Source: Klebsormidium nitens
Lineage: Eukaryota > Plantae > Klebsormidiophyceae
Direction of reading: 5' to 3'
NCBI GenBank assembly: GCA_000708835.1
Contig: DF237101.1
Span: 1 to 64,000 of the forward strand
Length of the DNA: 64,000 nt
A program made the position numbers and the translations under genes. Position 1 is the first letter of the stretch; each line of letters opens with the position of its first letter. The notes beneath the pieces are model-generated. The model did no database searches and was not told where the DNA came from. It saw nothing but the letters and a program-made list of their open reading frames with translations. Below are positions 21,812 through 64,000 of this stretch, piece by piece.

Positions 21812-21875
21812 CGGTACACGACAAAAGCAGGACCTAAAATTCTGACAGTTGTCGAGTTCCAACCGTCTCGCCAAG

Positions 21876-21970
21876 TTGCAAGTCTGACACCAACGGATGT
21901 CAGTTTGGCGAAGCACTCCATCTGGAGTCAGCCTGAGTCTGGATGACATCCGTTGGTGTCAGACTTGCAA
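21876..21970. repeat. Perfect 27-bp inverted repeat with a 41-nt spacer
   Basis: TTGCAAGTCTGACACCAACGGATGTCA (21876-21902) is the reverse complement of TGACATCCGTTGGTGTCAGACTTGCAA (21944-21970). Confidence 0.95.
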
Positions 21971-23613
21971 GTTGCACAAACCAGTGGAGGAGTCTAGCTA
22001 TTACGTACGGGACCTACGGAGTCCTGAGTCCCGACCAGGTACCTACGGTAATATCGACGTACCGGTAACCTCTTGAGTTGGTGGACCGTGGGGTCCGGGC
22101 CCCGGGGGCCGTTGTCGTCGTGATGACATCATCAAATCCGATCTGATTTTGTACGGCACTCTGTCTCGCTCAGAACTCAAACCACAGGAGATAACATGCT
22201 ACCGAGAGTCTCTAGGTACATGCAAAGCACCTGTACACTACGGTACCTAGATGGTGCTGATATTGGTACCTAGGACCTAACGTACCAGATTGTCATACCG
22301 GAAAATAATAAAGTCGAGACTTGTGTACACTTTCTGGTCCGGTACCATCAGTACTTGAATTAGTACGCGGCCATGGCCCGCGCGATAACCATAAACTTTA
22401 ATAGTACCGTAATATGGATCTTAAGGTACTGAAAGTACTGGATTTCCGACTTAACCAACACTAAAACCCTAAGGACAAAATGACCTGCTCCGCACCCGAA
22501 CCCACCCTAACCACCAAACTAACCCCACCCGTACTCGTGTACCTTAAGTTCCTTATTACTATTAAAGTTTATCCCTATCCCGCGGGGAGGACCCCGCCTG
22601 GGAGGGCGGGTGTGCACTGTGGACTCTGGACAACTTTGATCTCGATTCTCAGGACATTCCGGATGTGAGGAAACGACCGCCAGGGGTTCAGTTCTCCCCT
22701 ATTGTGGAACCCCTCTTACAATGTCTACGAGATTTCACGCGGGGCCGCCTGGTGACAGTCCAATCAGAGCCGTTCGATGCAAATTCAATGTCAACCTAAG
22801 GGCCTAGATTCTTTGTTCCGGCACCGACGGAGTCGTACGTTACATACCACAGGTGTCGCCGGTCCCGAGATCGGGAAAGTTTCCTGAATCCTGATCGAGA
22901 TTGGGAATTTTGTACGCTACCAGTATTCTCTACACCGGCCCTCCCTGGCAGCCACGGTCACGGTTTAATGGGCCCGGGGCCCCCGTCACATGTATGGCCT
23001 GTCAGTCTCAAACTTCCAAAGGCCCCGGGCACAGAAAACCGGAAAACCTAACCCAAAAAATAACACGCTTCCGCACGCATAGGTACCCACCCGGTACAAA
23101 CACCAAATAGACCCTGCCTAATACCTAGCTGTAGTAGCCGTGCCTCGGGCAATGAATCTCAGGAACTCACGCTCGACTGTGAAGCGTTGAGCCAAAAGTG
23201 AGAGCCAAGTTTTGGTGATCATGGTCTCGCTGTATGCAAACCAGTCTTGACCCCACTGATTTGCGACATTATTCAACTTTTTAAAAAGTCATATCATGAT
23301 TCATGCAGCCTGACCAATGTGGCGGATTGTGGCATTGCACTACTGAAAGATGTTCTTTGGTTGATATCCAATATCACCATGCCGGGACCATGTTCATGTC
23401 CCGATAGTCGCAACCGTACTTACATGATGCACAAATCACAATCCAATGGGTTCGACATCCACGTTATTGGACAACTAGTAAGCTGCTAATAGTTGGGGAA
23501 GTCGTGTAGTAGCCTGATAGGGGCTCCTCTGTTGACGTCCAAAGATACCCACATCGAAGGGACTTCTGCTGCAAGTTTCACAAACTCAAAGTCTTGTTGT
23601 CGAGGTCACGCGG

Positions 23614-38500: not shown

Positions 38501-41500
38501 AGTTTGCTGCTTGCTGTACTGGTGGGCAATGTTGCATTGCGATTTTCTGTGGAGTTTGCGGTGAGACACTGCTGCGAGTCGACGTAGGGACAAGACCTCC
38601 CTTCCGAAACGTACTCACTCGACGGATATGGAGCTGGCTGCCGAAGGGCCGATATTAGATCCAAACAAAAACTAAACAGAGTAACTTGAATAATTCCTCT
38701 TTTGGAAACCAAGGTCCGGAAATTGAAGCGGCTGGAAGCCTTTCGTCGGACAAGCCGGCTCAAGATCTTCGCCATACTAGATCCCTGGGCCAAGGCATTC
38801 AGTCGATCAACCGTCTCGAAAAGATCCCCCACGGTCAAACCGCAACCTGAACCTCAGAACCCGTCCTCTGATATCATCAGTCCTCCGACTGTGTACAGAG
38901 GCGGCAGTCCGAACGCCGCGCCTGCCGCGCCCGCCCCACCTGCCGCGCCCGTCGCGCCCGTCGTCGGTTCTCTGCAAAGCCACAACGAGCAACTCTATCG
39001 GGAGATCCTCAGCGAACAGCAGGAACTGCAGCAGATGAGCCTGGTATAGAACCCGAATCCCTCTGACCCAACTCCCTCTCTAACCCAACCCCCTTTCTAA
39101 CCTAGTTTCCTTTTTACCCAAGTCCCTTTCTGACCGGACTTCCTCATCAATCCATTTGGGCGCTCAAAGAAAGTAGGGAGTTGTGGGCTTAGGGATGGCA
39201 GACTTAGCAGGGTCCTCGCGTCTTAGCGCGTCAATCAGAAATCATGCTGGAGGCTGGCTACATTGATACATGCACGTGAACATGTGTCGAATAAGGTCGG
39301 CTTTCCCTCAAGAAGAAGACGCAAGGTACTGTGTTGACCTTTCGTAGACGAACCGGGAGCGAGCAGTTTCAGAGCAGCCCGCGTTCTCGTATCGGCTGGC
39401 TGCTGGTGCTATTCAATCGAACTTCTCATGCGTCTGCATCTTGCTTCTTATACTCACAAGGCTTGCTGTTGGGTGTTTGAGTTAACTGTCTACAATGTGA
39501 CTCTCCCTGAGCCCGGAAGAGATACGTTCCAACAGCCTGACAAAGTAGTTGGTTCGCTTCTTCCAGTCGGAGCGGCAAGTCGAAGACGACTTCAAGGCGC
39601 AGACGTTCCAGGAGTTGAACCGCATCAAGGAAGTGCTGGTGAGGGGCAGAATGGGAGGCTGACGAGGTTTCATGAGTTTGATAGGTTGCATTCTGAAGTC
39701 TGAGACGTGAGATGCTGACCGTGTTGCGTCTTGCAAAGCCTTGCTCTCTTTTTCGTACCGCTCCTCGGCATATTGATATGCTTGTGACCCAGCTCAGGGG
39801 CAGTATATGCGAACATATTTCTGACGCTTTGAAGATGAGGCGACACGGATACTGATCGATGAGGGACCTCGGGGTTGGAACGGCTGGAAGGTCTGAGAAA
39901 TTCACTTCAAAAGGTTTGCTTCAAGTTAAGCGAACGCTAAATTACCTTACCTTCCCGGGTATCGACGGTGCCATAGAATGTCGTCATTCTTGGCTACATT
40001 TTTGGACCGTACTCAAAGCGCGGATGCAAACATCCGCTTGGCCTATAGAGCAAGGTTAAATTGTTCAATTGAGCACAAGACGTGGCGAAACGTACTCTTC
40101 AGCTATCCGGTCATTGAGAAAGTCCTCGCTTTATTAAACGCCAAGTAATTGGTTTATCAAACGGCAAGTGATTGGTCTTCTCAAAGCCACCTGCTGCTCT
40201 GTGTATATGCCCTTGAAGATTGAACCGTATCGATCTCATCATTATCCTGCATAGCTCATAAATTGTGGCGTTAATGCAGGCGAGCCGGGAGTCGGAAGTC
40301 GCCAGCATGGGGGAGGCTCTCAAGGAGGCGCGGGTAAGCTCACCAGAAATCAGACATTGTCTCATTCGAATCTTGTTCAGCCTGACCAAAACTATGTCCG
40401 TTGGTTTGCTGAGCTACCTCCTCGGCAAATTCTCGTCTAGTGTCCTTCGACGAACAAGGTCAAAATTTGACACGTGTTCTTATAAGAAAAGTGTTCACAG
40501 TGTAGAAACGTACGCAGAGTCAAAACGCAAGCCATCAATGAGCTTGATCCGCGGCAGATGCTTGCTCGCTAAACGCCGCCTGTCTCGAGATCCTAAGGGT
40601 GCTACTAACTGGTTGTTGTTGTCGAAATTCGTCGATATCAAAGCGGCCGCTCTTTCCAATCTGCATACAGTTAGATAACAACTTTGGGCGAATGCTTGGT
40701 CCTGTTCATTCATGCGGCTTCTGGTACTACGTTATCTTGCCGTGCTTTCCATTTGGCAGCCCTCTACATATCCAGAAACAGTGGCCCCGGAGTCAAATGC
40801 TGTAAGGCAGCCTCACAATCTCCGTTCAAACCTGGCAAGAAACCCGATAATCATGTTCACTTCACTTGTACCACCACCCCAGTTTTGAACGCAGATTCGC
40901 CAACAGAGCCATCCATCCCCGCTGAAATCCTCCGTTTACGCAATATTTCAATAATATGTTGTATAATGATTATGATTTTGAGATAATGATTCTGATGATA
41001 TTTCGCAATAAGATCCTTCAACACTCTGGAGACCCTTCTTACAGGCCCAGTTGAATCTGCTGCGCGCCAAGTCTGCGGCCGAGCTCTCCCAGGCGCGCCA
41101 GGAGATGATCGAGCTGCAAACGCGGCTGCGCTCCACTGAGAAAGCGCTCGAGGGCCTCAAGCAGGTGAAGAACTCTTTGCTTTTGCGGTTTTAGTCTCCG
41201 GATATCGCGGGGCGAAGCTTGTGATTGTTGAAGAACGAAAGGGAAAACCTTTGAATGGCCTTAACGCGGCTGCGGTCCGCCGAGAAAGCGCTCGAGGGCC
41301 TCAGGCAGGTGAGAAACTTTGTGCTTTTGTGGTTTTGGTCTCCGGATCTCGCGGTTCGCAACCCTGTGATTGTTGAAAAAGAAAGGGGGAAACTTTAAGA
41401 CGCCTTTGATCCGTTGAAAAATGAAAGGGGGAAGCTTTAGCAGGCGTTGACACGGTTGCGGTCCGCTGAAAGCGCTCGAGGGTCTCAAACAGGTAAGTGC

Positions 41501-44562: not shown

Positions 44563-47500
44563 TCAGAGCTCCGCCGACTTGGCTTCATCCTTCTTACCCT
44601 GCAACGACGACACCCAATCACTGATATACTCCCCCACTTGACCCGCCTTCTCCCCAATCACTTCTGCTGCCTGGTGCGCCTGCTTCGTCAGCGCATCCGC
44701 TGCGCTTTTCCCGACTTCTACGGCAGAGTCAAGGGCCTCCTTGGCTTTCGACGACGCGGTATCGAACACCTCCTTCGCCGAGTCGGTCAGGTCCGCTAGC
44801 GTCGAACCGCTGGCCGCGTCCTTAGGTGCGCTTTTGGCGTCCTCGGCGCTCTTCTTGTCGAACTTCAAGCCGTTCTTTGCGTCGTCCTCGGCAAAGTGCT
44901 CCTTCATGGGCTGAAAAAAACAAATTGCAATGGCTCAGATTCTCCGGCACGACAGCTGGGCGGCTTAAAGCGGCTTAAAATCTGTAGACTTTTCAGATGC
45001 GTGTGGCCAGAAGACGCAGGTTCGTGCTTTTCCAGCGCTTTGATACAGGGTACTGAGCCCTGACGCTCAGCGACTGCAAAGCCCACACCGCAACCAGGTG
45101 GTCAAATCTGCGGCGACGGTGACGCTGCATTTGCTTATTTAGCGGACGCAAAGAAGCCACGTTAAGGTACGCCCTGTCACACTCTGTACCGTCGAAGAGC
45201 TGAAACTATCAGAATTCCGAACCACTTTCGGTCCAAGTCAGGAGGCTTGTTGTTTGGAATAAGGAAAGTCCACGGCTAGCCAAAACTGTAAACATGTGAT
45301 TCCTAAATGCTCAGCTTGATTAAGTTTGAATCATGTCAACATCGAGTTATCCCGGGTTGCTTCAAGGACTTCGTAGTACCCGACCTTCTTCTTGTGACCT
45401 GCCGAAAACTTACACTTCGGGAGGATATTGGAGAGCTGTACTAGCGCAACGTGCAAGTATCAGAATCAAGTAATACGCCAGAAATGAGAAGACTGTCCAA
45501 GTAATCCTGCAAATCGGTGAGCAGCCGAGAAAAAACGCTCACCGACGTGAAGTCTTCATCCTCGTCGTCATCCTCATCATCGTCGTCCCCGGCCCCCATG
45601 CCCATCTTCTTCATCATCTCGTCACGCTTAAACATCTCCATGCCGCCGCCCATGCCGCCCATGCCCTGCAGGGAAATAAAAACGCCGCTCTAGTTCTCCG
45701 AAAGCACGGTGTGGCCACGTTGGTCAAGCGCGAACAGCTGTTCCCGAGATGTCGGCCCAACTACTTTATTTGAGAACAATCTGAATCCGTTGCAGCGACC
45801 GATAATTGAACCGTTTGCAGAGCGTGCACGCGCTTTTGAAACGGTGACGAACAAATGACTTCTGAAACGGTTTGTCCTCTGCACCGTACACAACTCTTGA
45901 AGGTTGCGCCCCAGGAACCGACGGCTGGCCGCTTTTTAACGTACTCGGCAGATTATCCAAGCCCACATGCGTTGGGGCGCCAAGGACTGTCCTACAGCCC
46001 TTCCAAAAGACGAGGCACTTTCAGACCCGCAACTCAGAGCCCATAATAAAGATAAGGATCGAGGCATAGATACCGGCCTGCACCGAACCAGCCTAACGTC
46101 GCCCTATAAGTGAGATAAGAATGCAAGTTTCTCAACCACATATCTGATGGATAAAATCATGGACGGCCTTCCTTAAAGAGGGCGTCAGGGGACCGGTCCC
46201 CCCTCCGGCGACCAGATAGCGCGCCATATTGCACACTTGGTCGCTGAGGGGGACTTTCACGATTGGATCTGGGCCGTCAGATGAAATTTACCCTCAGGAC
46301 TCAGATGCACGAGTGTACTTTGAAATCTGACGCCCCCTTTAATTTTAGAGCACCTTTTCTTGCAGAGCAACAACCAGTATCCCACTCGGAACTGCTCGCA
46401 AAGTGTCCGTGCAGACCACTCGTCACGTTCGAGAGACGTTCGAGACACCCTCAGCACACGCGGATAAAAGTCTCAGTCAAAAGGATAATTGGAGTCTCAA
46501 AGGTGGAAGCAGGACAGGTTGACTAATAGAAATTGATGGACTCGAACAGGTTGATTCAGAAGTACGTTGCAGCGTACCTGCATTTCTTGCATCAGCCGCT
46601 CCACCTCCAAGTCTTTGGAGTCCTTCGGTTGGAACTCCTCCCCAGCTGGCCGGTCCTGCAAGAAGGAACGTTGATTTCAAGCAAGTTCTGGAGTATCTCC
46701 AAAAACTGTATCTCTCACTTCTCACCGAACTTTCCTGACCAAGGTAATTGCAAGTACAGGCTGTCAGGGTTTGCCGATGTCTTGTTCGTACGCACGCAGA
46801 CCTTTCTGATGCGCACCAATCTCGCGCAAGTGTAAATACCATCTCAACCACAACTGTCTTCGGGTGCGTCTTAATCGTCTTCGTTCGCGCACGATAGGAA
46901 CTCTCTGACTTGCAGACAACGTCGTAAAGGTGGACAATGCTTGCCTTCGGGACCGGCGGTGGTTTGCGTTTACAGGCCCCGCTGAGCTCGTAGCACAGCA
47001 GCTTAGAAAGCTGCGCCCGCTTTGTTGACTCCCTGAACAGGGCCTCCGCAACGTCCGTGTCTGAGTCTCCGATGACCTACAAATGAAGGTTCTTGCCTTT
47101 AGCTTTCACCATTAGGATGTGAATCAAACCCACACGATATGCTCGTCTGGCTTCACGGCCAAATGATCCACCTGATCGCTTAGCGCTGACTAAGCTCCTT
47201 TTCTCCAGTGCCCCCATTCACTTGTTTCAAAGCAGGTAATATAAAGAGTGGGTTCACCGGAAGGAATCTGCAAATCCAAGGTGAGCAAATTGAAAAGCCT
47301 AAATGCCACAGTAGCAGACCGTAAACAAACGGAATCGATCAGGGTCATGTGTACACCACCCGGGCCATAGTCGTAAGCTTCCCCTACTTGGATCTGCTAA
47401 TTTCGGCGCGACTTTTAGAACTCAACAGGCAATTGCGGGAGAATGCAGTCATTGGTAAGCCTCTCGACGTTATCCTGTGAGGTGGCCAACACAGACTCAT

Positions 47501-48784: not shown

Positions 48785-49597
48785 TTTTACCATCTCACGC
48801 CCCGCAACTCAACTACTAGTAGGATACTCACAGACAAGATAGGACTTGGCTTCGTGAGAGTATATGCCGCATATGCGTTGGGTGTGCGAAATGCATGCAT
48901 GATGGAAGCAAGCAGCAGCGCTGAAGTTCTACTAGAACTTCTAGCACTTGGGAGAGATCCTATTTGCTGAAGTCATGCCTTTTACCGGAACTTTACACAG
49001 CTGTGCCAATCATAGCAAACGAAACTTGTCAATGAGCTATGGCGCAAGTTTGATAATGTTGGAAGTTTGCAATTGCGGTTGCAGAACTTCTTATTGGTTG
49101 TCGATGTATAAGAATACTTAGACGATTTTTGAACGGCTTGCAAAACGATTCATCCTAGTTGTGGATCATATTTGCACGCCGGCTGCATACCGTACCAGGT
49201 TCTCACAACCTGCCAGCAAGGCAAATGAACCTCGGACTAAAATTTGGGCCACTTGGAGGTCACCACGTCACTCCCCCTGTAAACCAACGAAGTGAAAGTA
49301 TGTAGAAGGTCGAACCTAGGGTCGAAAAGCGCTCTATTGACCCCGGGCACTCTTTTGGGACTTATCCAGACAGTCCATATACTGAGTCCCCCTTTACTCG
49401 GGAGTGTGCAGTGGTCAGGAAATCTGTTCTGTCCGCTGTCTGGTCGTTTGGACAGCGTGGGCAATAATTTTACGACCTCACAATTCAGCAGATTAGCAGC
49501 GGGCGCGAGACGTCAAACACCGCATGCCGCTGGGTTCGCAGTGGGCTGCAACTTGGTAGGGTCAGAGCAGAAACTCAATGCTGCTTGCTTGAGCAAC

Positions 49598-52500
49598 ATG
49601 GTGACCATTCGCCAGGCACTAGAGAGCGTCCTGGGTGCCACTTCGGCAGATGTGGGTTGCATCCTCTTGCACTTGGAAAAGGCAGGCTTCAGGAGCGATG
49701 AGGCTGCAGAGGGCGTTTTCAAGCATGTGAAAGCAGAAAACCTCCCACAACCTGCTGAAGCTGCGCCTCTTACTTTCAAGCAGAAACTGATTCTTGATGA
49801 GGCAGTCTCTTCTGCGACAGGTGGGTTTTCAGGATTAGGACGCGGCTCTTCAAAGTTTAGGATGTAGTTCCTTGGATGCTTGGGTGAGGATACGTGCACG
49901 CGCCACTTGGAACTTCAGGTAGCGCAAGCACACTTTAGCTGTCGGAGCAGCAGTCTTTCTCAAAAGTCAGATTTGTGCAATAGCATTGTGTGAATGACTG
50001 CTTTCTGCTTCATGGTGGACGCTGTGATTCACACCACCCCAGTCAGAGGTCTTTCATCCTTCAGAGAAACATCACTTGACAATCAAGGTGTGGAATAGCA
50101 TTCGTGCATGCTGCAATTGGCAGGGTGCCGGAGCTCTCTGGTTCATGGTAGACGCAGTGGTTCACACACCACCTCTCACACCACATCTCCAGGTGCCTGT
50201 TCAGAGTACTTCACTTTGCTTCCCGGGTTGTTTCACCTTCAGGCCGAATCGAGGTCACATGATTCCAGAGCTAGGTATTTGGTATGGAATTTGCTTGGCA
50301 GGAGCTTTTGTTACAGCAGCTGCTTGCTGCAAACCATCGCTTTTACAGGAATCACCTGCAGCTGCTGCGCTACACTCACAAACTTAAGCTATGTGACCAT
50401 CATACTATAGGGCATGTAACCTCTAGGAAGTCACCTGCTGAATCCTCTGGGGTTAAAAGCATCAAAGAATTTGGTTTATGGTAGACGCAGTGACTCACAC
50501 CCACCCCTCCATTGTGTTGGTTCCTGTTTGGAGCATGTCCTTCTGGTTCCCTGGTTTGGTTCGACCGTCAGGCTAGAATGACTTCACACGATCTTTGAGC
50601 TGGGTGTCTGTCATGTAACTTTCCTGGCCGCAGCCTTTTAAAACCAAGACTCATTCCCACGCCTAGGCCGTAAGTTGCTGTGCAATCAAAAGCAGCTGCA
50701 TGCTTTTCATGCAGAGTCCAGCAACAAACCACAAAGGAAGGTCAGTAGGACGGGTCTGCGCTCTAGACCCAGTGCAACCATGCCAGTCCAGGAGGTAGAC
50801 GAGAGGAAGTTGTGGGACCAGCACGTTGCAAGCAGACCAGTAAGTAGAGCTCCATGGCGCCCCTTCAGGAAGGAGCTGCAAGACGTGATGCTCTAATGTG
50901 CTCCTTTAGATCCTACAGATTGACAGTGCTTCATTCATTCTCGTCCTCTATGTAGCATGCACTGCTGCAGCAGCTTTTTGAGTTGTCTTTCACACTGCAG
51001 GTCAGAGCGCAGTGCCTTACATGGGATGCGGATGATCCTGCGACCACAAGCTGGCTGCCACTGGCTGACGACATTCTCGTGGAAGCCCGCTGGCTTCATC
51101 TGAGGCTCTTCGAGGGCCTGAATCGCGGCGACATTCAGGGGATCATCGAAGGAACTGGCTACGAACCAGTCTGGCATCCAGCCCTCCTCCGCTTTTTTCA
51201 GGTCAGCATCAGGCTTGCTTTCATGCATAAGCTGCGGTCTTCTCGGGTCGCGCAAAACCTGGAAATGCAAGCGAGATCCCGCTTGCTTCGTTCTTGCAAA
51301 ACCAGTCATCCCTTCCAACACGACACATGATTGGAGTTGGCATGCCTCTGAAATGATTTCATGCAAGCTCGTGGCAGAACTTGTTTTTCTAATGTCGCTT
51401 AGATGGACCTTGCTTTTGTCTAGATGGCCTGCAGGTCTATGCTGGCTTTCTTCCCAAGCGCGTACTCGAGGATAGACTACTTCAAAGCAAGAGACTGTCT
51501 GTCTTGGATCGTGATCAATTGCTCCTGGTTGTACTCAGGCCGCTGCAGGAGGGCAGCCTGGTGTCAAGTATGAGCGGGAGCTGGAGAGCCCCGGCGACTC
51601 CGCTCGAGAAGATATAAGGGGCTTGATAATGAGGCCAAGTGAAGGGCAGCCACCGCTAGCGCCTGGTGAATGTAAGACTGACTTCAAGCCGTCCACCTCT
51701 GATGCCATCTTCCACAACGGCCAACAGGATGGGATTGCTAAGGTAAGTCAGGCGACGAGACTGGTGACTGCTCTGCTTCTCACTGTCCCGTGCTCTTTGC
51801 TGCTCTGGACCGTGCTTGGGCGAAGGGCTTGAGGCAAGAATGGAGATTGGGCCTGCTCTTTTTGGGGAGGGAGGGCTGGGCAGGGAGCTCTCAACCTCCT
51901 TGCTTGACATCTCTGAAAAGCATGGCCCCAGCGCCAAAATCTGCATGTTGCAAGCGCGTGCACTCGCGATGCCTCACTTTGCGGACTAATAGTAAGTATG
52001 GAGTTGGCCTGGTTCCAGATTTCTGGCGTAGTATGTCAGCAGCTTGACAGGTTGGAAAATCTGTATCTGATATCTGGTATGTGTGAGTTTGTGGATCAGG
52101 AGTAATGAATTAACGGGGTGAACAAATAGCGGTCACTTTTCTGTTGTAGTAAGATGAAATCTCTCGCTTCGTTTCCTTTGAAGGGGTCGACCAGCTGTCC
52201 CTGTCCGTCTCGTTCCATTTAGATTGTCCAAGCATCAACGGAAGAGGTCATTCATGTTGATCCTGAGTGCTGCCAACTCCTCTATGCAGTTGTTCAAAGT
52301 GTGCTGGTCAAAGTACTGCGGGTACGGTCGCACGTTCATCTGCGCCTTCGCCGTGCTCTTCAAGGCCATCTGGATCGTCAGACTTCGCTTCGTGGGCACC
52401 CCGGACAAAGACCTGCCGACACCGTCCGCAGATTCGGATGAGTCTGTGCTGCTCGGATGTGACGTAGTCCCTCATTTCCCATCTTCCTTCGAAATTGACC

Positions 52501-53802
52501 AAAGCGACCCCTGCCTTCTCTGCCCCGACACACTCACTCTCCTCAAAACAGAGCCGTCCATCCACGACCTCTCAGAGCTTCTGCTAGAGAGTGGCTTTCG
52601 CAGGGGAAGCTTTCGTGCCACTCCTGGGTTTCACCTTCTCGTCCGGTCAGTTCTCGGGCAGTGCAAACTGTGGGGGCTGCAGGCGGTCGAAACGCTGGTG
52701 CTTAAGCTAGACACGGGAGCGAGCTGGGGGCTCAGGAAACCGGAGTGTGAGGTGGTGGCCATGGGGGCTCGGTCACTTGTCCTGCGGCGGCAAGCAGCGG
52801 ACAACTTTGTGATCAAGGTCGGAGCAAAGGAGACGATCGAGATGGAGGCCAAGATACACGACCGCGTGGACGGCAAGAGGTGCCCCCATATTCGGTCCTT
52901 GGAGCTAGATGAGCACGGGTGGGGTATGCGGGGCACAGTGCATGGAGCAGGTGAGCGCATCTGGGCTCTTCAGCAACCATATTTCCAAGCAGCTTGACAC
53001 CGAGTGCACTTGCAGCGAAGAACTTTCCTTATGTCTGGTTACTGAATGCCTTTGATTAGGCTTTCAGACCGCTCTGCAAATAAAGCTTGCATCTTTTTGC
53101 TGGGTCAGACTCCTAAACCTCCTGACTCAATGCAGGCGATGGTCTCGCTTTCATGTGCTTGGCGGAATTCTGCACCGGAAGCCTGGAACCACACCACGTT
53201 GCAAGTCCTGTGCGCTTCCAAGAGTTCTTCACCCAGGTTTGTGTCCAAATCCAGGGCTTAAGAAGCTCATTTAACAGTGTCAGGCTAATCCTCGAAATTA
53301 TCACGTCTGCAGCAGCGAATACGGTCAAGCATAACAATCTGAATCTTGTGCATGTTGAAGCGTGTATGCCCCCTATTCCGAATTTCCCGTGAAACCTGAA
53401 TCTGCATTGCTGCTCACACAGGCCCAACAGGCGCTGCACGTCCTTCATGAGAACGGCATTCTACATCGAGATCTGAAGGCGGACAACATGCTCCTGACGT
53501 CCAATGGGAAGCTCTTACTGAATGATTTCGACGTTTCCACGTTCAAGGACGATAAGAGGGGCCTGAAGGCCTTAGTTGGCAATGACTATTGTCGATCGCC
53601 TTTTTTTGAGCAGAACCACGTTTCAAACAAAACAGATTACACAATCCGGGATGATAGGATGGGGCTTGTTTTGGCTTTCCTGCAGCTGCGGGGGAGAACC
53701 GGGAGTAGTTTCAAAGACAAGTATGCGCTTCTAACGGCGGCTAAACGGGACAAAGACTGCCCGCCAGAAATGCAGCAATGGATCAAGGATGCAGGCTTGT
53801 AA
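49598..53802 (+). CDS. Protein kinase-like protein with helical N-terminal header and putative PD-(D/E)xK nuclease; Crinkler-like architecture (7 exons, about 631 aa)
   Basis: Exons 49598-49820, 50715-50839, 51001-51201, 51539-51742, 52290-52950, 53136-53236, 53422-53802; phases close. Kinase motifs MGARSLV...VIK, IEMEAK, LHRDLKADNMLL and NDFDVS (DFD instead of DFG). The central EDIRGL...PGECK resembles a restriction-endonuclease-like motif; that part is inference. Confidence 0.78.
50005..50640. repeat. Degenerate intronic tandem duplication (3 anchor copies)
   Basis: TTCATGGTGGACGCTGTGATTCACACC (about 50008), TTCATGGTAGACGCAGTGGTTCACACACC (about 50142) and TTTATGGTAGACGCAGTGACTCACACCC (about 50475). 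The sequence following the last two is also similar. Confidence 0.75.
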
Positions 53803-56158
53803 CTACTTCGATGAGGATGACTTTGGGTAACTTTGCATGAATTCACAGCAAAGGCCCGGTGAGTCATCAGTCTTTCGCAGGGAGGATATTAGAATATCCT
53901 TCAATCATACAGGAATAGAGGATCTAGAGGACGAGGATAATACGCTTTCAAGACATTCTGTCGGATGATTCTGGAGATTTCAAGGCAGAAAATTTTGTCA
54001 CTTTGTCACTTTGCATGAAATCTGCCAATTCAGTTGTAGACAATGTAGAATTGTACGTGGATCGTACATGACCAATCTGCATATGCTTGAAAGCCTATAG
54101 CATGACACCATTCATTAGTGCCTTCATAATTTCATGCAAGGGCGCTGCTGATCGCGTACAGAATACTTGTACGTGGCCATTGGGCAGATTAGCATACATG
54201 AATGATGGCGCGCGACTAACTATTCGCAACCGAGGCCAATAAATATTCTAACGTACTCTTGACCACGGGAATTTATGGTGCGACTTGCGGAGCTCGGTTC
54301 GACCGTACAGTTGCGCATAATATCAGCAAACCAAGTGAAGTTCGGACTAAAGTTCTGGCCAATCAGGGTGGGGCTTCTCAGCCCCCCCTCTAGCCCAAGG
54401 GGCTGCAATCAAGCGGACCGGTCGAAGGGCCTCTCCCCAGGGGCATAAGGCGGTCGACGCCAACCGGGGGGCGGCCGTTACCGCGCTCGCTCCAATCCGA
54501 TCAGCACGGTAATGATTTCGCCCTGAGAGCACACTAGCTAGTTACTGTCCGAGTGTCCAAGCTTCAGGCACAGCGGTCAGTCACACTAGGACTCGGACGT
54601 CAGCAGCGCCGTATACTACAATATTGCCAGCATTTTACATGGTATGGCCGGTATACCTCGAGCCTTCCAGAAGGCATGCGAAGGTCTGCCAGCTGTCCAG
54701 AAATCCAGCACATCCAGCGGAATATAACAGTCAGCAGCCTGGAATATCCGGACCGGACTTGCTGGGACCCAAGTCATACCGAGGTAGAGTCAGGACTCCT
54801 GCATGCTGCTCAGCAGACGCCAATGCGGAATGTACACAGGCTGAGCCTCGGGCGCCCCTCTCCTTGCTGCTTGTGGTCAGATGTTCAGGTGTGCTTGTAG
54901 CGCCATGGAGCTGATGCGCTGCTGCTGCCTGTTGTACAGCTGACATTGGGGCTAGTTTGCGCTTACTTAGTATAGGGAATGACTCGGTTCAGCCTGGTGG
55001 CGCAACTTGGTAGGAACTCGGACCAGAGCAGGGCAGGCTTTTGCCCTCAAGTTTCGAAGTGATCAAGACTATTGGGCAACAAGAGACCGTGTTTGGCTGC
55101 TCAGTGCAACGAAGAAGAGTGCATCAGGTACGCATCTGAAAAGACAATGAATCTGATGAAGCTCTAATATATGTTTCACCATCCAGTGAACGTATTCTTC
55201 TGATGCTGCTTCTGATCGTGAGGTCGACGAAGAGCTGCAAGTGAGAAGAGGTTCGACAGAGCTGCTATTGGCATGCATATAATACGAGGTTGCGCCTCTT
55301 CAACCTGGTGCAAGTGAGCCAAGACCAGGGGGTTGTACTATGGGATTCGTTAGAGTTCTCAGCAACCTGGCCGGGTCGATCGTGTTAAAAAAAGAGGCTA
55401 ACCTGTGACAGAAAGCAGAGGGGGGTCAGCTGCTCAACACATAAAAAAAAGCAGCTGCTGATTGGTTCTTTCCACAGAATCGTTCAAAAACTTATCAGCA
55501 ATCAGGTTTTAAAGAGTGGCTGTATGTCACGATTCTTCTCGGCCCAAGGCCAACTCGCCATCTGGACCCGAACTGCTTCATTCAGGCCGGTCTAGATCAG
55601 TTTCTCGAAGGTGAGCCAACCTCCCGCAATGGTGAGGAATGTCAGCCCTGCCTTGATGCGATGGGTAGCAGAAGCGACGGAATCTTTAGGCTTCTGCTAT
55701 CCTTCGCATCAGGGCCAGATTGTAATTTCAAAAATGCAGAAACAGGGGCGAAAAACCATTTGTTTCTATGGTAAGCTGCCGCGGGGGCCCCTCCGGGAGG
55801 CTGCTGCCTCGAGGCCTCCCTTCTCTCTACTTCAACTCTGTCTTTTGCTACATCAATGAGCGCTGTACACATGAAGATGCGCTTCATTAAGGTTAATTAC
55901 CTATCTACCCGAGTCAGCTGATGGCTGCTGACGCCTGTGCACAACGGTGCTTGTTTGCAGGCGTCAGTGATTGATGCACACTGTGAGTGTCTGCCAGCAA
56001 CGCCCGCAGTATCACAAGCAAACTGCAATGAAAAGCATTTTAAACTTACGGACCCAAGGGCGGCCATAGGCGTCAGTGTGTTTTGGGCTGCCCTCATGAT
56101 CTGGAAGTATCAGCGCAATACGAAAGGGGTCTCTCTCACAGTATTGTATCTTTTGCAG

Positions 56159-59100
56159 GCCATGGTGGGTGGGGATGGTCCAGCATCAGTTGGGGCTCCA
56201 GCTGACCCTCCCCTCTCAACTGGCCCGCCCCTTACAGCCAACCCGCACCTTGCGCCGATCAGCAACGGCGAGTCAAGCACACTGGCAGGTTCGAGAAGCG
56301 CGCAGTCGCTCGATGGCGCACAGGAAGGCTTCGCAGAAAAGGTACATGCCTCGAGCAGACCACAAATAATCAGCGTGGCATGCTCACAGAGTGCCTTGCC
56401 ATCGGCTTTGTTGGGTGAATCCGTGAGCAATTGGGCAAGGTGCGCATAGGGTTCAGACTCCTTTCAGCAGAAACAAGAAAGCGCCTTACTTGAGCGCCTC
56501 CTGGTCCTGCGTCGCTGTGCCTGATTCTCATAAGCTGTGCCCGCACTGAGGTGTGCCAGCACCGCTCACAGGCAAACGAGGTGTATCAGCCAACGAGCCC
56601 TAGATACTACAGCATGCGCACACCAGAGGAGATCAAGGCCACGCGAGCGGCGAGCGAGAAGCGGCGCCGCACCGGGGAACCCTTTCTGGAGGGCTTTTTC
56701 GAAGCTGGGCACCCAAGGGCACCCAAGAACGAGGTAGGAGTCAATGCTTGGAAAACAATCCTCTTGCACAGAAAGTGTGCCTTCTGAATAGTCGAGCCGA
56801 TCTTATGTGAAAAATGCTACACGCTGCACTTGTCAGTGCAGACGGCTGTCCAAGGTGTCCAAGCTCTTTTGGAAACTCTTCTGGTGTTCAATCCTGATGA
56901 CGCCAGCACCCGGCCATCCCACCCAGAATGCTTGCTGTAGTTGATCGCACAGACACCTGTCCAAGTGTCCGAGCTTTTNNNNNNNNNNNNNNNNNNNNNN
57001 NNNNNNNNNNNNNNNNNNNNNNNNNNNNNNNNNNNNNNNNNNNNNNNNNNNNNNNNNNNNNNNNNNNNAATTGATGGCGCAGACTCTGTCCGAGTGTCCG
57101 AGCTTTTGCGATGACTTTTCAGAGAGGTCGGTCCTGGTGACGTCAGCACTTATCAAAAACACCTAGAATGATTGCTATAGTTGACGGCACAAATCCTCCT
57201 TTAGGTTTAAACCAAAGTTGTATTGTCGTACAGGATGGCCGCCCGACCGAACCAGGCGGAAGCGCCCGTGCACTTCATCCAGAGGCGCCCTCTAGAAGCA
57301 CCCTTGTTGCGCGTACCAACCGCGCTGGCTCAACGGGTGTGGACAACCAGGCGCCTGCTTCCATCCCTGTTCTGCATGGCCTCTTTGACCCCAGCTACTT
57401 CCACGATTTTCAACGCAGGCTGAGAGAGGAAGTGGCAGCTTCGCAGGAGCTCGAAGCAGCCACCACCGACTCACAGGTTAGTGTTAAGATTGTTTAAACT
57501 TTATCGAACCCAACCACTGATTCTTGAGGCGCGCCTCAAGAATCATGCCGGTGTACCGGGGACAACTAGTGCTCTTGTGTTAACAGCTCGGCTTGTCATG
57601 ATAGATGCTGACGTCACGAATGAGGCCCGAGCCCAGAAGGTAGGTCACAAACTCGGACACTCGGACAGGGGTGCTCACCGGCCCACCGGCCAGTATTGAG
57701 GGCTGTTCTTGTGACCTTTCGCCTGGACTTTCGCCTATACGGCGGACTTCTGATACCTTCCGCTTTACGTGCAGGACAACGGCGACCCAGAGGGCAGGCC
57801 CCCGGGCCTTATAACGAAGATGACGAGCACCCCCTCCGGCCAGGGGGGCGCTGGCGCTCCTGGTGAATCCATGGACGTTGACAGTCGGCCACAGCCGTCC
57901 AGCGCCCATTGCAGCCAGGTGCGTCTCAAGTGCGAGTGCATGCGAACGCTGAAGAGAACCAAGCAAGCAGACCCATTCGCACACGCCCCCAGTTCCTTGC
58001 TTTTTGGGCAGTGCCGTAGACCGTCGCTTGGTTGTTGAAGAACCTCCCCGGCTGCCCAGAGATTTGTCCAAAGGTCCAAGATTCGGTCCGGCTGTCCTGA
58101 TCTCATCCCGGCTGAGGCTGCCCAACCTTCTTTGAGTTTTCAGAAACATGCCCAGGTCCCTGTCTGGCTGCCATAAACCCTCGCGTGTCTGCAAGTGTCT
58201 GACTCTCTCGAGTTCCGTCCGGATGCCGCCCAACAAATCTCTCCGGCTGTTCGAGATCATTCTCTGCTGACCGGAAAATTCGCCAGTCAATCTGCCGTTC
58301 CAAGAAACGAATGGTCATGTTACAGTCCCTTGCTAATCTCAAGTTTGAGTCTGATCTTTCTTCGCTTGAGGCTTCCGAATGAAACCAGCGTTCTACATCC
58401 GTCAAAGTACTGGAAGTTTCTGGTATCGGCTCGAGAGCTGTCTAGGATTCATCTGGTGCATACTCACGGTGTTCTTGAAACACCCTACGTATGCACCACA
58501 TAACTTGAGGAATCGAAGACCGTTCAGCTCTGCCGACGTCATTCCGGAGCTTCGCTCTCAGAAGGTGTGACAAGAACTCGGACACTTGGACGAATGTTGC
58601 CCCTGTTAACTTCAAAGTTTCTACCTTAGGATGTCTGCTGACGTCACTTAACAGGCCCGAGCTAAAAAGGCATGCTACAAAGTCGGACACTCAGACAGGC
58701 ATTGCTCCCATCACCATCAATCACAGAAGGATTCCACTCGGGTTGTCTGCTGACGTCACTTAACAGGCCTGAGCCCAAAAGGTTGGTCACAAACTCGGAC
58801 ACTCAGACAGGGGTGTTGGCATTGTCTCAACCCATCGCGCTGGCCATCTTGAGGTGATGGTTGCTGACGTCACGAAGCAGGCTCGAGCTCAAAAAGCATG
58901 TCACAAACTCGGACACTCGGACAGCGGTCTCTCAACAGCTGCAACGCTAGTCTTAGCCTCACATTGATTCATTAATTCTTCTTATGTCAAGCGGCACGCA
59001 TGGTTGTGCAGGCAAGCAGTGGCAGCAACCAGCAGCCGCCGCGCGCCTTCAGTGGAGAGGAGTCGCAGAAAACGGAGTCAGAAGGGGAGGGCGAGGACGT

Positions 59101-62100
59101 TGAGGGGGCGGGGTTTGAGAGCGTGCACGAATCCTCAGACGAAGAGACGTCCCAGGATCGTGCAATGATCGACGACGCGCCTCAGGAAGAGGAGAACGAA
59201 GTGGTGCAGTACGGCCGGATGATTGCGGCGATGGAGACAGATTCGGACGCAGAGGGCTTCTCCCAGGTGCTGGCGAAGCTCAAGCGCCGCGCGCCGAATG
59301 TGGAGACCAACCCGGCCCCAAGCAACCGCCGGCGCCGCGTGCTGCTCTCACCCTCCGACTCCTCGAGCGAGGATGAGGGCAGCTCGTCCCCTGTTCGCAG
59401 CCAGGCCCCGAGCGCCAAGCACCCCCCCTTGCCGGAGGAAGGGGAAGCGCTTGGGGCGGACTGCCCGATGCCGGACGACCCCTTGTGGGAGCCCGAGGAT
59501 GACGCCTGGTTGTACGACCTTTCGCCAGAGGACCTTGCCTGGTCGGACTATGTCGCGGACTTCGTCGACCTGAGCTTGGAGGACGACTTCGCCCAAGCGT
59601 GCGAGATCGTTCCACATTCGCGCGGAGGCAGCAGCCAGGTGAGCACCCTCCACCCCTCCCACGCGCTTCTTTTTGGGATAGGAAATTGGGGTTCAGCTTG
59701 TGTCGGCACTCAGCTGATTGCATCAAGGCCTTATTGCGTGCCCGGAAGAAGTGAGCGTGCAATTGCAACCAATAGTGCAGAAGACATAGGAATCTTTTGA
59801 GGAATTCCTGTACATCGCCGTTCAAATCCCCGACTTTGACAGGTAATGTTCGTGTACATTGCCGTTCATTTAATGTACATAGCCATTCCACCCCCAAGTT
59901 GAGAGCTCTTGTACACGAAAACCCAAGCGCATCCTATGCTTTGAAGCGACCAGATTATCGGACAGCTCTGGGCGGAGATTGCTCAAACAAACTTCCCCTT
60001 TTTGCTCAGCGGCCGGTGCACATAACTTCCCCTTTGAGGAATGCCCGCTGATGTACTCGAATCTCTGAAGCACATCTGAAGACTAGGAGGCATTCAGCGA
60101 ATTAGTGAAGACTTCATCTGATTGTGTACAGAATATTGGCATGGAACTTTTGGCCCCCCTTTTGTTGTTTGCAGTGCTTCTAGGGTGCCGAAAAGAGTGG
60201 TCTAAGTCTCTATTCCGCACTTCCTCGCAGGCCACAGCTGCCAAGGGTGCTCCGATCGCCCTCGATGCAGCCGAGCCATCCTCGCTGAGCAATTGGCTCA
60301 CTTCGCCCTCCGTCCCCGTCCCCGTCCCGAGCGCCGCGGCTGCCCAGAGCGCCATCGGGGCGGCCCAACAGGAGCAGACCCTACCTGCTGCGGCCCAGAG
60401 CTCAGGGGGCGCAACCAACGCCACCCAACCGCCCCCTGCTCCCCGCCTCGTACCCGAAGGCGTTGCAGTGCAGGAAACGATGCCCTTCCCCCAGGTAGGG
60501 TTCGTGCAAATTGTGATCACCCCCTTTCTTCGCTTGGTAAGCGGTCGGCTCAAAATGAAAGTCGCGTTGCTTGTTGACGTCATCACGGCATTTTGAGGTT
60601 GATGCCGCGTGCCTCACACATCGTAACCGATGGTGACTTTCTGCATCGCTTTGAAGCAACGGCCATGTGATGCTCTCTCACGATATTGGCTCATTCGATG
60701 GGTGCTCACTTCTCGCAGGTACCCAGCCTAGCTGACGTGGGGGGGGCGTCACGAGTCGACCCCATCGTGGCCGCCGCTCATCACTTGCACACGCATGGTG
60801 TGGCGGCGCTGACGTTCAACATGAAAGTCTCGCTGAACGACAAGGGAGAGGAGAAGAAAGCGCCGGCTGGCCTCATGCCAGAGTGGCAGAAGAAGTGCGA
60901 TCTCGGCAACTGTTTGCGCCAAGGAGTCCGGCCTGGCAGAGCCTGCCTTGCGATCGTGACCGAACCCTCGGACCTCATCGTCCTCGACGTCGATACGAAG
61001 GACGAAGGGGTGGAGACCTTCGAGGAAGTGCTAGCAGAACACGGCCCCTTGCCTGACGATACCCCTTGGGAGTGGTCCGGAACGAGGCCTGGGATGCACT
61101 TCTTCTTCTCCCTCTCGCAGTCCAAGGCCGCCGGGTTGCTGAGCGGCGCCAACAGGACTAAGCTGACGTACAAGGGCCAAAAAGTGGGGCTTGACACGCG
61201 CGGCGAGGGGGGGATGGTCTTCGTGGGCCCCAGCAGCTACAAGAGCCTGGATGGCACAGTGCGCTCGTATGAGTGGGTGCAGGAGATCGCCCAAGACCGC
61301 TCCAACCTCCGAGCTATGCCCGGGTGGTTGATCGGAATCCTCAACGACAGCAGCGCGCCCTCAGCAGCACCAGGGTTCATGCTCACTCCCAACACTGATC
61401 CTTTTCCGCCCAAAATGCATCGCCCAAAGCTCGCTCTGCTTCTTCACCCCACCGACCTTAATTGCCATTCGTCATTTTGTGATTTCCGAGAGCTTGTTCG
61501 TGGGTTGACAACACGAAGTTTGTTCGTGCATCCGTTTTTGCCGTTTACTTCCTTTCAATTGAGTTGACATCTCCAACATGAGCCTTTGTAGGTGATGAGG
61601 TGACCCTGTCCGAGTGTCTGAGTTTTCGTCACACCTTCCAAGAGCGGAAGTTCTGATGACGTCAGCAGCCATCCCCGATAGGATCCTCCGTAGTTGATGG
61701 AGCGGACTCTGTGCGAGTGTCTGAGTTTTGGCACACCTTCCGACAGCAAAGCTTCTGGACGACGTCAGCATTCTGCGCTTCAGCGGAATGCCGCTATGAT
61801 GGTGTGCAGACAGTGAACACCCGCCATTATGCCTTCCTTCAACAGTGGCTTCTCTATTACCGAAGGCCCAAAGCGTCGCACCCTAACGTCCATTGCAATC
61901 CTTTTTTGCAGGGCAGCGCCATTGGCCCCCGCTCGCTTCGCTGAGGGCCTCAATGCCGACGGAGTCGAGTTGCCCCCTCCGCCGGCGGTCCTGGAGCGCA
62001 TCAAGAAATGCCTTGCAGACGTAGGAGACACCTCTTCGCGCTTCGACAAGCTCAAGAGGTTCCCTGGGGGGCCGGACCTGTACGCCTATCGCGTTAGCGG

Positions 62101-64000
62101 CGCACGCGTGTGTCCGTATGGTGTGAGCCACAGCGGCTCGAACAACTTTTGTGTCCTGGTACGTGGTCGCGGTCTTTTCTACAAGTGCAACAGCTCCGAG
62201 TGCTGCGACGTTCATCCGCAGCGCAAGATCGGGGAGCTCACGGCACAGGAGAGCATGGTGTGGGGGGCGAGACGGCCTCGGTTGCTGAGGACGACCTGAC
62301 CGTGTACGACATGCTGACGAAGGCCTTTGTGGATTACTGGGCGTTTAAAGGAGACATGGGCGGCAGTCGGATTGTTGCGCAGATGTACTCCAGATGCCAC
62401 AGGTGAAGCTACCTTTCGTCGTTTCTCATTCAAGCTCCGCAATCTTGGGTGATTGTTTGAAGAGTTTCCAGGCTCTTTCAATACGTGACCTCAAATCCAA
62501 GATTGGTCGGGCTGTACTCCTCTCTTGTGAGCGAACTTCGACTTCTTGAGAGCCCTACCGAAATTGCAACTCGAATGGTGGCCGCTGATGCTGTGTCCGA
62601 ATGTCCAAGTTTTTGGAGTCAGCAACCTGAGATGACGTCAGCAGTCCCCCCTCGCTCCCTCGGCTCCAGTTGACAGCTTGCGTCGTGTCCGTGTGTCCTT
62701 TTGAGCCCGCAATCCCTTTGACGGCGGCAGCGATTGCGCCATAATCTCTTGCGGAACCAATCGTCTGCTTTGCATCTTGTGTCGGAGTGTCCCCATTTTG
62801 TGCACATCTCTTTCTTAGCAGCTCGGTGTGACAACCGCAGTCACCTCAACCGATGAGCCTTGCTTCGTTTGCACGTAGATCAATGGGCATCATGGCCCAG
62901 TTTTCCCACGATGGAGCTTGACTTTTCGAAGCGGCCAGAGAAGCGACACCTTTCCTCTTCCTTTTAACTGCAGGATCTGGTATGATTCGGAGGGCAAGAC
63001 TTGGTGGATATGGGATGGGAAGCGCTTCAAGCAGGCTGCAATCGAGACGGTCAAATATATCTGCATTCATCAGCTGAGCACCGTTTACGGTCGACTTCGA
63101 GCAGAATTGAAGGAGCAGATAGATGAGACCGTCGACGAGAATGAAAAAAAGTTGCTGAGCAAGCGTCTCGACAAAGTGAGACGCTACTACGACGCTGGTG
63201 AGATTGGCTCGACCTTGACGATCATGGCAGGGGAGATGGCCCTGGATTTGGTTGGGGAGCTGGACGCCAATCCGGACATCCTGAACGTTCAGAACGGGGT
63301 CATCAACCTGCGCACTGGCCAGCTCGACATTCACAGGCCGGAGTACTTGTGCACCAAGCTAGCTGACGTCAACTTCAAGGTGCGCTTCAAGGTTTTGGAT
63401 TGTGATGTCGTATTTGTGCAGCTGTAGAGACACATACCGCCAGAGTGTTGGTTGAATGAAGAGAAGAGGTCACCTCAGAGCTTCTTTGTGCTGATATCAA
63501 CCTCCATGAAACCCCTCGAAATCACATTTACAGATTGAGGGGTTTCTTGTATGAAACCTTGTGGCCTTTGTGAGATGTTGAAGTCTTGAGGCTGCCACCT
63601 CAGGAATTACTTGCACGTCCTAGCTTTGATCATGTCCAAGCAAGCCGAGATGCCATGCAAAGTAGTGTGCAGCAAGGACTTGATGCTTTCTGCGTTGTGG
63701 CCTTGCAAGTAAGCAGATCGTAAGAAGCTCCGGACGACCCGTTCCTTGCAGGGGCTCAGTCATCCGACCCCCACCATCCGCAATTTCCTGGACGACATCT
63801 TCAACGGCGACCAAGCACTCATTGAGTTCATGCGGAGGCTATGGGGGTACGCCATAAACGGGCGGATTAGCGAGGAGATCATTGTGTTCTTACTCGGGAG
63901 CGGCGGTAGGTCGCTCACACCAAAACCGCTCTGATTGCTCTTGTTTGGGCGTCTCTTGGGATCCCCGTTTTCGAAAGCAACCCAATGAGAGAGCAGTCTT
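56159..64000 (+). CDS. Spliced Prim-Pol/AEP + Zn-finger + D5_N + SF3 (P4/D5-like) primase-helicase with long low-complexity N-terminus; one frameshift; incomplete at the window end and 5' end uncertain
   Basis: Exons 56159-56341, 56572-56733, 57234-57476, 57775-57918, 59012-59638, 60231-60494, 60719-61374, 61912-62402, 62974-63379, 63752-63905. Motifs IVLDVD, GMHFFF, LDTRGEGGMVFVGPS (AEP); CPYGVSH...KCNSSEC (Zn finger); WWIWDGKRFK and LDANPDILNVQNGVINLRTG (D5_N); RLWGYAING...VFLLGSGG (start of Walker A). The core domains are well supported; joining the six N-terminal exons is less certain. Confidence 0.8.
56847..57148 (-). repeat. Bipartite intronic element, 3 reverse copies (one cut by a gap)
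   Basis: 56847-56908, 56958-gap and 57087-57148: TGTCCGAGTGTCCGAG ... TGACGTCAGCA. Confidence 0.9.
56979..57068. other. Assembly gap (90 N) inside the repeat cluster
   Basis: Run of N. Confidence 1.
57606..57667 (+). repeat. Bipartite intronic element, forward copy
   Basis: TGCTGACGTCACGAATGAGGCCCGAGCCCAGAAGGTAGGTCACAAACTCGGACACTCGGACA. Confidence 0.95.
58531..58923 (+). repeat. Bipartite intronic element, 4 forward copies (105-114 bp period)
   Basis: Starts at 58531, 58636, 58748 and 58862; each spans 62 bp from box A to the end of box B. Confidence 0.95.
61607..61770 (-). repeat. Bipartite intronic element, 2 reverse copies
   Basis: 61607-61667 and 61710-61770 (61 bp each). Confidence 0.92.
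62594..62643 (-). repeat. Bipartite intronic element, shortened reverse copy
   Basis: TGTCCGAATGTCCAAG...GATGACGTCAGCA, 50 bp. Confidence 0.8.

Follow-up and report, generated by a model that had tools for sequence, protein, structure and literature searches.

How a primase-helicase of the type found in phages and giant viruses came to be encoded by an intron-rich gene in a plant-lineage genome is the question raised by a 64,000-nucleotide stretch of Klebsormidium nitens DNA (assembly GCA_000708835.1, contig DF237101.1, positions 1 to 64,000 of the forward strand, hereafter the window). A sequence-only reading of this stretch had proposed that the segment from 60719 to its right end is an endogenised viral gene, or a mobile element that had acquired many host-style introns. 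On balance, and with a confidence not far above even, we view this locus as one member of a multicopy family of primase-helicases that would replicate an old mobile DNA element, derived from eukaryotic viruses and adapted to its host. A mobile element that makes DNA copies of itself would fit the dispersed and often broken copies, which have kept their introns, as well as the restriction of a repeat to the locus.

All parts of the enzyme named in that reading are present. Pfam identifies a Prim-Pol domain (PF09250, E value 9e-18) in 60719-61372, which carries the AEP catalytic motifs (DxD at 60983-60994, H at 61091-61099, D at 61193-61213), and a D5_N domain (PF08706, E value 2e-17) in 62975-63379. 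Between them lies a zinc finger (ligands C at 62111, H at 62129 and the C..C pair at 62186-62203) for which Pfam gives no match. An N-terminal primase with catalytic motifs is followed by D5_N and then by a superfamily 3 (SF3) ATPase, in which Walker A, Walker B, motif C and the Arg finger are all represented. The Walker A motif is interrupted by a GT donor after 63905, and the remaining helicase, annotated as KFL_001520090, extends past the window end; RNA loose ends at 63905 continue into GNGKG in all five RNA runs compared. Primase motifs and zinc finger are intact in the window copy, as are the four helicase motifs in KFL_001520090. Full-length copies of the family exceed the TIGR01613 cut-off for P4 primases. 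Residues 1-540 make up an arm of low complexity, 16% D+E and 44% S/P/A/G, in which basic clusters occur.

The coding stretch 60719-61372 matches GAQ83538.1 (KFL_001520080 of K. nitens, on a 170,893-base scaffold) at 100% identity, and is not where the gene begins, as had been supposed: the actual start lies about 4.5 kb to the left, where six further coding exons begin at 56162, preceded by non-coding 5' exons that start at about 54835. Ten coding exons, all on the forward strand, lie within the window, to 63905; joined unedited, they yield exactly the 887-residue KFL_001520080 protein, with a TGA stop at 62297, and the nine introns that separate them are GT..AG without exception, as the earlier reading had noted for its part of the gene. 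Exon 1 (56162-56341) begins with the ATG and is single-copy DNA, unmatched by the other three copies tested. Exons 2 (56572-56733) and 4 (57775-57918) are defined by RNA joints, and similarity to a sister copy on another scaffold, KFL_009020050, begins at about exon 3 (57234-57476). Exon 5 (59012-59638) encodes an acidic low-complexity portion of the arm, common to other copies, whose basic clusters are likely nuclear import signals, and exon 6 (60231-60494) a Pro/Ala-rich linker. Exon 7 (60719-61374) bears the Prim-Pol primase-polymerase domain with motifs I-III intact, and exon 8 (61912-62402) the zinc finger (C-x5-H-x18-C-x4-C) and then a frameshift. D5_N occupies exon 9 (62974-63379), and exon 10 (63752-63905) opens the SF3 ATPase, the last exon or exons falling outside the window.

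Twenty sequencing runs from seven studies contain at least half of the sampled sequence words; contigs were compared from five of the 16 presumed RNA runs (five studies) and from two of the four DNA runs (one sample), the RNA label being assigned from spliced joints that are missing in the DNA runs. Introns 1-6 and 9 have spliced joints in each of the five RNA runs, and intron 8 has a clean joint in four of these and a joint with one letter between in the fifth; none of the spliced joints appears in the two DNA runs. Upstream, the non-coding 5' exon or exons (54835-55610, forward strand) use alternative donors near 55127 and 55610 to reach an acceptor at 56158, the corresponding joints (55124>56156 and 55608>56157) being present in three of three RNA runs; the start near 54835 is placed by a single loose end in run X11. 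Intron 7 (61375-61911, forward strand), which has a weak donor (GTTCAT), is mostly retained: it is bridged unspliced in all five RNA runs, and among the joints listed a spliced form occurs in X8 only. Its retention produces an 822-codon frame that terminates in the intron, after the primase.

The frameshift and the early TGA to which it leads (62256-62299, forward strand) had been treated as a fault that restoring one base would mend, allowing the exon phases to close. The break is instead real and transcribed, because RNA contigs of runs X4, X8 and X12 cross the site near 62258 with no differing letter or gap, which rules out an assembly or read error. The discrepancy is moreover one of two bases: the intact KFL_009020050 is two bases shorter there and reads through. 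Downstream, the shifted frame is open across exons 8-10 and constitutes the start of the annotated neighbour KFL_001520090, the helicase half. The window copy consequently cannot join its primase to its helicase in one product, and the two-base excess implies a primase-only product; the copy can make only the arm and primase, with or without the zinc finger. It would have to rely on sisters that are both intact and transcribed, KFL_009020050 being one. That intact sisters are also transcribed follows from the in-frame form, two bases shorter, which at 80% likeness occurs in RNA runs X12 and X17 as well as in DNA run X1. The suggestion that the gene is long domesticated does not suit the window copy, since it is frameshifted.

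Named K. nitens members of the family occur on at least 15 scaffolds, nine of which are shorter than 50 kb, bearing out the paralogues that the sequence-only reading had proposed to count. At three of the 15 loci (KFL_007640060, KFL_009020050 and KFL_004930010) one annotated open reading frame (ORF) holds the complete set of helicase motifs together with primase, zinc finger and D5_N; the remainder are partial, split or without some part, in some cases perhaps owing to poor gene models. Database labels of the copies are hypothetical protein, SF3 helicase or P4-like primase, and we found no description of the family in the published literature searched, which did not extend to subscription journals, to Repbase or to the PMC5294986 supplements. 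Only Klebsormidium appears among named eukaryotic matches, Pfam detects only Prim-Pol and D5_N, and the family does not have the character of a conserved low-copy eukaryotic PrimPol, PriS or Twinkle, so that the judgement that this is no core eukaryotic or organellar primase stands. One member, P0004 (KFL_006270020), has at residues 111-128, after a Cys-rich N-terminus, a hydrophobic stretch ending in VESNPGP, presumably akin to a 2A ribosome-skipping peptide; it may represent a fused neighbouring gene.

The members differ widely in sequence. Identity within the family falls as low as 44% (GAQ92546), while KFL_009020050 is 97-98% identical to the window copy in the zinc finger and helicase and 84% in the Prim-Pol exon, an unevenness that suggests a mosaic produced by exchange between copies. 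Among 40 listed DNA differences (98 more exist), 15 fall in exons 8-9, and 13 of these are synonymous, which implies that the helicase was under selection until lately; both amino-acid replacements are those of KFL_009020050. Exon-sized ORFs of other records respect the same boundaries: four proteins end exactly at intron 8 (55-64% identity), one ends exactly at intron 9, and four begin just after intron 10 (38-42% identity). Intron positions shared at 38-64% identity imply that the introns predate the spread of the family and that its copies arose as DNA, not via RNA. In the helicase tree a K. subtile transcript is nested among the K. nitens copies. The earlier choice between an endogenised viral gene and a mobile element thus holds in part: the kinship with replicases of mobile elements and eukaryotic DNA viruses is upheld, but the object is an old family rather than one gene, with introns older than its dispersal.

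These observations also bear on an explanation by domestication, in which the Klebsormidium lineage took up a viral replicase a single time. The gene would then have acquired introns and a regulatory arm, and would now serve the host in repriming, repair or interference with DNA viruses, its numbers changing by ordinary duplication and loss. Truncated, primase-only products like that of the window copy could then be tolerated or act as decoys. Such a role would accord with spliced transcripts in five of five RNA runs from five studies, in-frame sister copies included, with purifying selection and old shared introns, and with the nested position of the K. subtile transcript; the ordinary host genes to the left of the locus and the unique 5' part of its transcript, described below, point the same way. 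It is harder to reconcile with the partial or split state of most annotated copies, their dispersal, often on small scaffolds, the existence of a near-identical pair with shared introns alongside a locus-confined repeat, and the lack of any named relative in another eukaryote among the database matches. We regard domestication as a substantial minority hypothesis.

The repeat has two parts: a tandem pair of 8-base boxes and, beyond a spacer of variable sequence, a TGACGTCAGC box that lies 49-51 bases after the start of the unit. Nine strict copies lie in 54546-61770, with none in positions 1-54000 and none in 200 Markov controls, and a profile built from the nine adds three weaker ones, up to 62645 (best match elsewhere, E value 0.012). 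All lie outside coding exons, in both orientations and partly in tandem at 103-114 bases. The leftmost copy (54546-54604, forward strand) stands upstream of the transcribed region, where RNA depth is about zero (54000-54667), and is a candidate left limit of the element. A forward-strand cluster at 56839-57149 flanks an assembly gap (N at 56979-57068) and marks the point at which DNA cover by related copies begins; five reverse-strand copies occupy introns 3 and 4 (57605-58936), four of them in tandem at 105-114 bases, two more lie in intron 7 (61607 and 61710), and the rightmost, shortened copy, recovered by the profile, is in intron 8 (62594-62645, forward strand). The reads contain further spacers. 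A variant of the repeat has the same depth figure as a diverged D5_N exon (39.8 in X1, 53.2 in X3), and we infer that the two belong to one contig from another copy. Intron 3 also contains a perfect 28-base palindrome (57518-57545), where small deletions are seen in the DNA contig of another copy.

When DNA contigs are compared at 80% likeness, their summed depth, a hint that gives no copy number, stays near 16-25 across most of 44-56.6 kb and reaches 33-100 beyond 56.7 kb, introns included; spikes near 46.3 and 50.3 kb are at short repeats. Together with the repeat these values would put the element's left limit somewhere from about 54.5 to about 56.9 kb. To its left are ordinary host genes, among them those for a mitochondrial carrier, a pseudouridine synthase, a cyclin, an R3H/AAA helicase, a carbohydrate-binding protein and a kinase. 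The locus forms no GC island, and Rfam has no match at 44-64 kb.

Within the favoured interpretation of a mobile element, its class can be proposed tentatively. Helitrons and Replitrons are marked by an HUH Rep endonuclease, accompanied in Helitrons by a PIF1 helicase; neither an HUH Rep nor a PIF1-type Pfam match occurs in window frames or full-length copies. A speculative possibility, to which we give limited credence, is a new class of capsid-less, self-copying eukaryotic DNA element with one intron-rich gene, which would spread in the nucleus of a land-plant relative and have neither a DNA polymerase B nor an HUH nuclease nor a classical transposase. Within that scheme, it is conceivable, and similarly doubtful, that replication starts at two-part origins in the element's own introns, each combining helicase boxes with a host basic leucine zipper (bZIP) site. 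In the favoured interpretation more generally, host RNA polymerase II and the spliceosome would produce the protein, and its basic motifs would carry it to the nucleus, where its C-terminal winged helix may load at the tandem 8-base boxes. A host bZIP factor, acting at the TGACGTCA box at a distance of five helical turns, would perhaps assist. In an intact copy the ring helicase is predicted from its fold to unwind DNA while Prim-Pol and zinc finger lay primers, in the manner of poxvirus D5, African swine fever virus (ASFV) C962R and SaPI Rep. The element would thus be copied as DNA with its introns kept, and inserted at new sites by an unseen recombinase or by host repair.

Several observations weigh against a mobile element. 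Over its initial 2.3 kb (54.6-56.9 kb) the transcript is single-copy, unlike what a uniform element would show, and transcripts in every RNA run compared are unusual for a silenced element and expected of a host gene. No integrase, transposase, capsid or packaging gene was detected by Pfam in 207 window frames, a scan that can miss short exons and is weak for capsids of Polinton-like viruses (PLVs). No element end, terminal repeat or target duplication was identified in the window, and no movement, empty site or free form was observed; no gene neighbourhood of the metagenomic relatives introduced below was recovered from IMG/VR or GTDB. The repeat itself, its confinement being known within the window only, may be an unrelated small repeat; a context search with its pattern gave no match.

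The ancestry of the family was approached through its outside relatives. Word-index searches outside Klebsormidium returned only phage and plasmid primases (23-32% identity). An exhaustive search recovered closer, unnamed metagenomic proteins of about 800 residues, each a single ORF with the order Prim-Pol, zinc finger, D5_N, SF3 and no long arm; the closest are 28-39% identical (P0104 39%, P0107 36%, P0105 33%, P0109 31%), on contigs of 4-35 kb and, in one case, 260 kb. IMG/VR scans with P0003, A1 and P0252 gave no match. Motif-pattern matches L082, L083 and L290-L292 were set aside as chance and the other pattern matches as phage or bacterial primases, and the single locus from the metagenome scan, L001, was also a chance match. 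Statements on structure rest on a model of P0104 (AlphaFold pLDDT 94), used because the AlphaFold model of P0003 (pLDDT 33) was unusable. It aligns with vaccinia D5 (Z 26.7, root-mean-square deviation [rmsd] 6.3, 409 residues), the SaPI5 primase-helicase (Z 25.2, rmsd 4.6, 405), the pRN1 primase-polymerase (Z 13.4, rmsd 3.3, 168) and an RFX-like winged helix (Z 7.7, rmsd 3.0, 69), and also matches ASFV C962R; its zinc-finger part was barely tested in this fold search. Among its best 50 BFVD matches, no named viral protein exceeds 23% identity.

Helicase trees of 190 rows, 102 rows, and 99 rows after P0067, P0127 and P0145 were dropped, which used 31 of 50 dereplicated locus ORFs, unite the Klebsormidium copies in one group (support 100). 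This group falls on a side with the metagenomic relatives and giant-virus-type D5 proteins (with AEP_C962R/PriCT_2, one on a giant virus metagenome-assembled genome [GVMAG] contig), and in the 99-row tree 38 phage and bacterial rows lie across a branch with SH-aLRT 100. These results bear on the possibility that the gene came straight from a bacteriophage or bacterial plasmid (a P4/SaPI-type primase) and was later intronised and amplified. The TIGR01613 score, named matches that are phage primases (24-31%), and a Prim-Pol typical of phages are all compatible with it, and an approximately unbiased (AU) test does not reject Klebsormidium next to the phage group (p 0.72), in a tree that scored 29 log units better than the quick tree. 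Nevertheless, apart from that branch, which emerged once three long branches were dropped, the Prim-Pol tree makes P0104 sister to Klebsormidium (0.948) within a 52-member group without any fetched phage locus, and all 288 helicase ORFs taken from 283 fetched loci lack the zinc finger. A direct phage origin appears very improbable. These comparisons of sequence suggest that the family belongs on the giant-virus/PLV side of the D5 tree, probably outside the phage P4 primases.

Other members of this clade show further variation. P0137 (unnamed, 1132 residues) carries RNA polymerase Rpb1/Rpb2-like domains ahead of the Prim-Pol-D5 protein. P0124, P0126, P0139, P0142, P0177 and P0190 combine a related zinc finger with a different N-terminal primase that has no Pfam match, as if primases had been swapped within the clade. 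On a GVMAG contig of 10.6 kb (L002), a D5 helicase-primase lies beside ORFs that, judged from their translations, resemble serine hydroxymethyltransferase, GMP reductase and TFIIS.

A eukaryotic viral ancestry raises the further possibility that the locus is part or remnant of an integrated PLV or giant virus, with capsid and integrase genes to the right of the window. Fusion of an AEP primase to SF3 is an established replicase type in PLVs, as the portions consulted of PMC11161782 and PMC4642659 indicate, and the same primase-SF3 fusion is present here. PLVs and Polintons are otherwise recognised by major and minor capsid proteins, an A32 ATPase and a tyrosine or RVE integrase, in a unit of 15-30 kb with terminal inverted repeats; pPolB is their alternative replicase. 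The helicase groups with giant-virus-type D5 as described, phycodnavirus-like inserts are recorded in K. flaccidum in the sections consulted of PMC5294986, and spliceosomal introns are reported in punuivirus latent genes. However, the locus has at least ten introns spread along a gene longer than 9 kb, whereas the part consulted of the source on punuivirus gives 2.5 for each gene, and PLV inserts are treated as intron-free in the corresponding part of PMC10120064. No viral gene was detected in the 54 kb to the left, and Pfam finds no core gene of nucleocytoplasmic large DNA viruses, which in an endogenous giant virus would sit in a gene-dense, intron-poor island, in the 207 window frames, subject to the same limit for short exons. 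AEP_C962R and PriCT_2 were not found in P0001-P0004 at an E value of 0.5, although giant-virus-type proteins in the same search set had them. In the table of PMC5294986, as far as consulted, K. flaccidum has four marker entries, not five, which we read as no D5. We judge an integrated virus of this kind unlikely. The earlier designation of the enzyme as P4-phage, giant-virus or PLV type is borne out as to its AEP-SF3 kind, but it is not a typical giant-virus D5, lacking AEP_C962R and PriCT_2, nor does it nest within phage P4 primases in the helicase trees, although the AU test does not reject a branch beside them.

Some features of the window are distinct from the primase locus. A spliced, transcribed, single-copy gene at 49577-53802 (forward strand) has unassigned upstream exons, ends in a protein kinase domain (PF00069) and presumably resembles Crinkler-like nuclease-kinase genes. 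Two short dispersed repeats (46200-46350 and 50000-50640) show many loose ends in DNA runs and are unrelated to the primase. Host genes, including those for the mitochondrial carrier, the pseudouridine synthase and a helicase, contain runs of tandemly duplicated, decaying exon ends with their splice donors at 3450-5120, 12260-12650, 24600-24980, 26180-26550 and 41120-41500, and a 31-base inverted repeat, 97% complementary with arms 41 bases apart, adjoins a small assembly gap at 21872-21974.

Primase-SF3 replicases are spread among phages, plasmids, giant viruses and PLVs, nearly always as intron-free genes in virus-like blocks. The present case is an intron-rich, transcribed, multicopy replicase family in a model of early land plant evolution, with a candidate origin repeat and with both intact and broken copies expressed. 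Were it the replicase of a mobile element, as we favour, it would disclose a kind of self-replicating DNA element missed by capsid- and transposase-based surveys; were it domesticated, a host would have adopted a whole viral priming and unwinding machine. In addition, the family points to an unnamed metagenomic clade of zinc-finger primase-helicases.

Individual features recall several known systems. The hr sequences of baculoviruses, scattered tandem repeats that bear CRE-type bZIP sites, have been proposed to act as origins and enhancers, according to the sections consulted of PMC3230853; the likeness of the K. nitens repeat to them is one of analogy only. The C-H-C-C spacing of the zinc finger (5-18-4) is close to that of human PrimPol (6-19-4, a herpes UL52-type finger), with no Pfam match to back homology; the human finger (C419, H426, C446 and C451) is needed for priming, according to the portion consulted of PMC4027207, and human PrimPol belongs to another AEP clade and has no helicase. 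Among phage and plasmid proteins, SaPI Rep, pRN1 ORF904 and actinophage Prim-Pol-D5 share the Prim-Pol fold, the winged helix and a TIGR01613 score above cut-off, and differ in sequence (24-32% identity), in having no zinc finger and in lying on the separate side of the helicase tree. Primases of the P4 family bind iterons, to which the short direct repeats here, as a candidate origin, offer a parallel.

Further parallels come from viruses of eukaryotes. Between them, the parts consulted of PMC5294986, PMC11244446, PMC11161782, PMC4642659, PMC10120064, PMC12220804 and bioRxiv 10.64898/2026.06.19.733378 and 10.64898/2026.10.09.758095 establish that PLVs have AEP-S3H replicases, that Klebsormidium carries inserts from giant viruses and that latent genes of giant viruses can contain introns. 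The punuivirus latent genes of Chlamydomonas are, in the account available, viral genes with host-type introns and steady expression like the K. nitens family, but they come from a single, complete giant provirus whose intron-bearing genes have about 2.5 introns each. The AEP-S3H replicases of PLVs and virophages (Guillardia theta PLVs; the YSLV5 primase-helicase, a BFVD match) present the same primase and SF3 fusion in integrating algal elements, whereas the K. nitens locus is intron-rich, shows no capsid, A32 ATPase, recombinase or terminal repeats in the window, and may be no direct relative of any named PLV protein. Poxvirus D5 (mpox E5) and ASFV C962R differ in turn: the K. nitens primase is of the pRN1 Prim-Pol type, without AEP_C962R or PriCT_2, sequence identity is 14-19%, and the family has an acidic arm of 450-700 residues, many introns, multiple chromosomal copies and no viral neighbours found on the left. 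Yet these two unite primase, zinc domain, D5_N, SF3 and winged helix in one chain, just as the K. nitens family does; they are the best structural matches of P0104, and giant-virus-type D5 shares the Klebsormidium side of the helicase tree.

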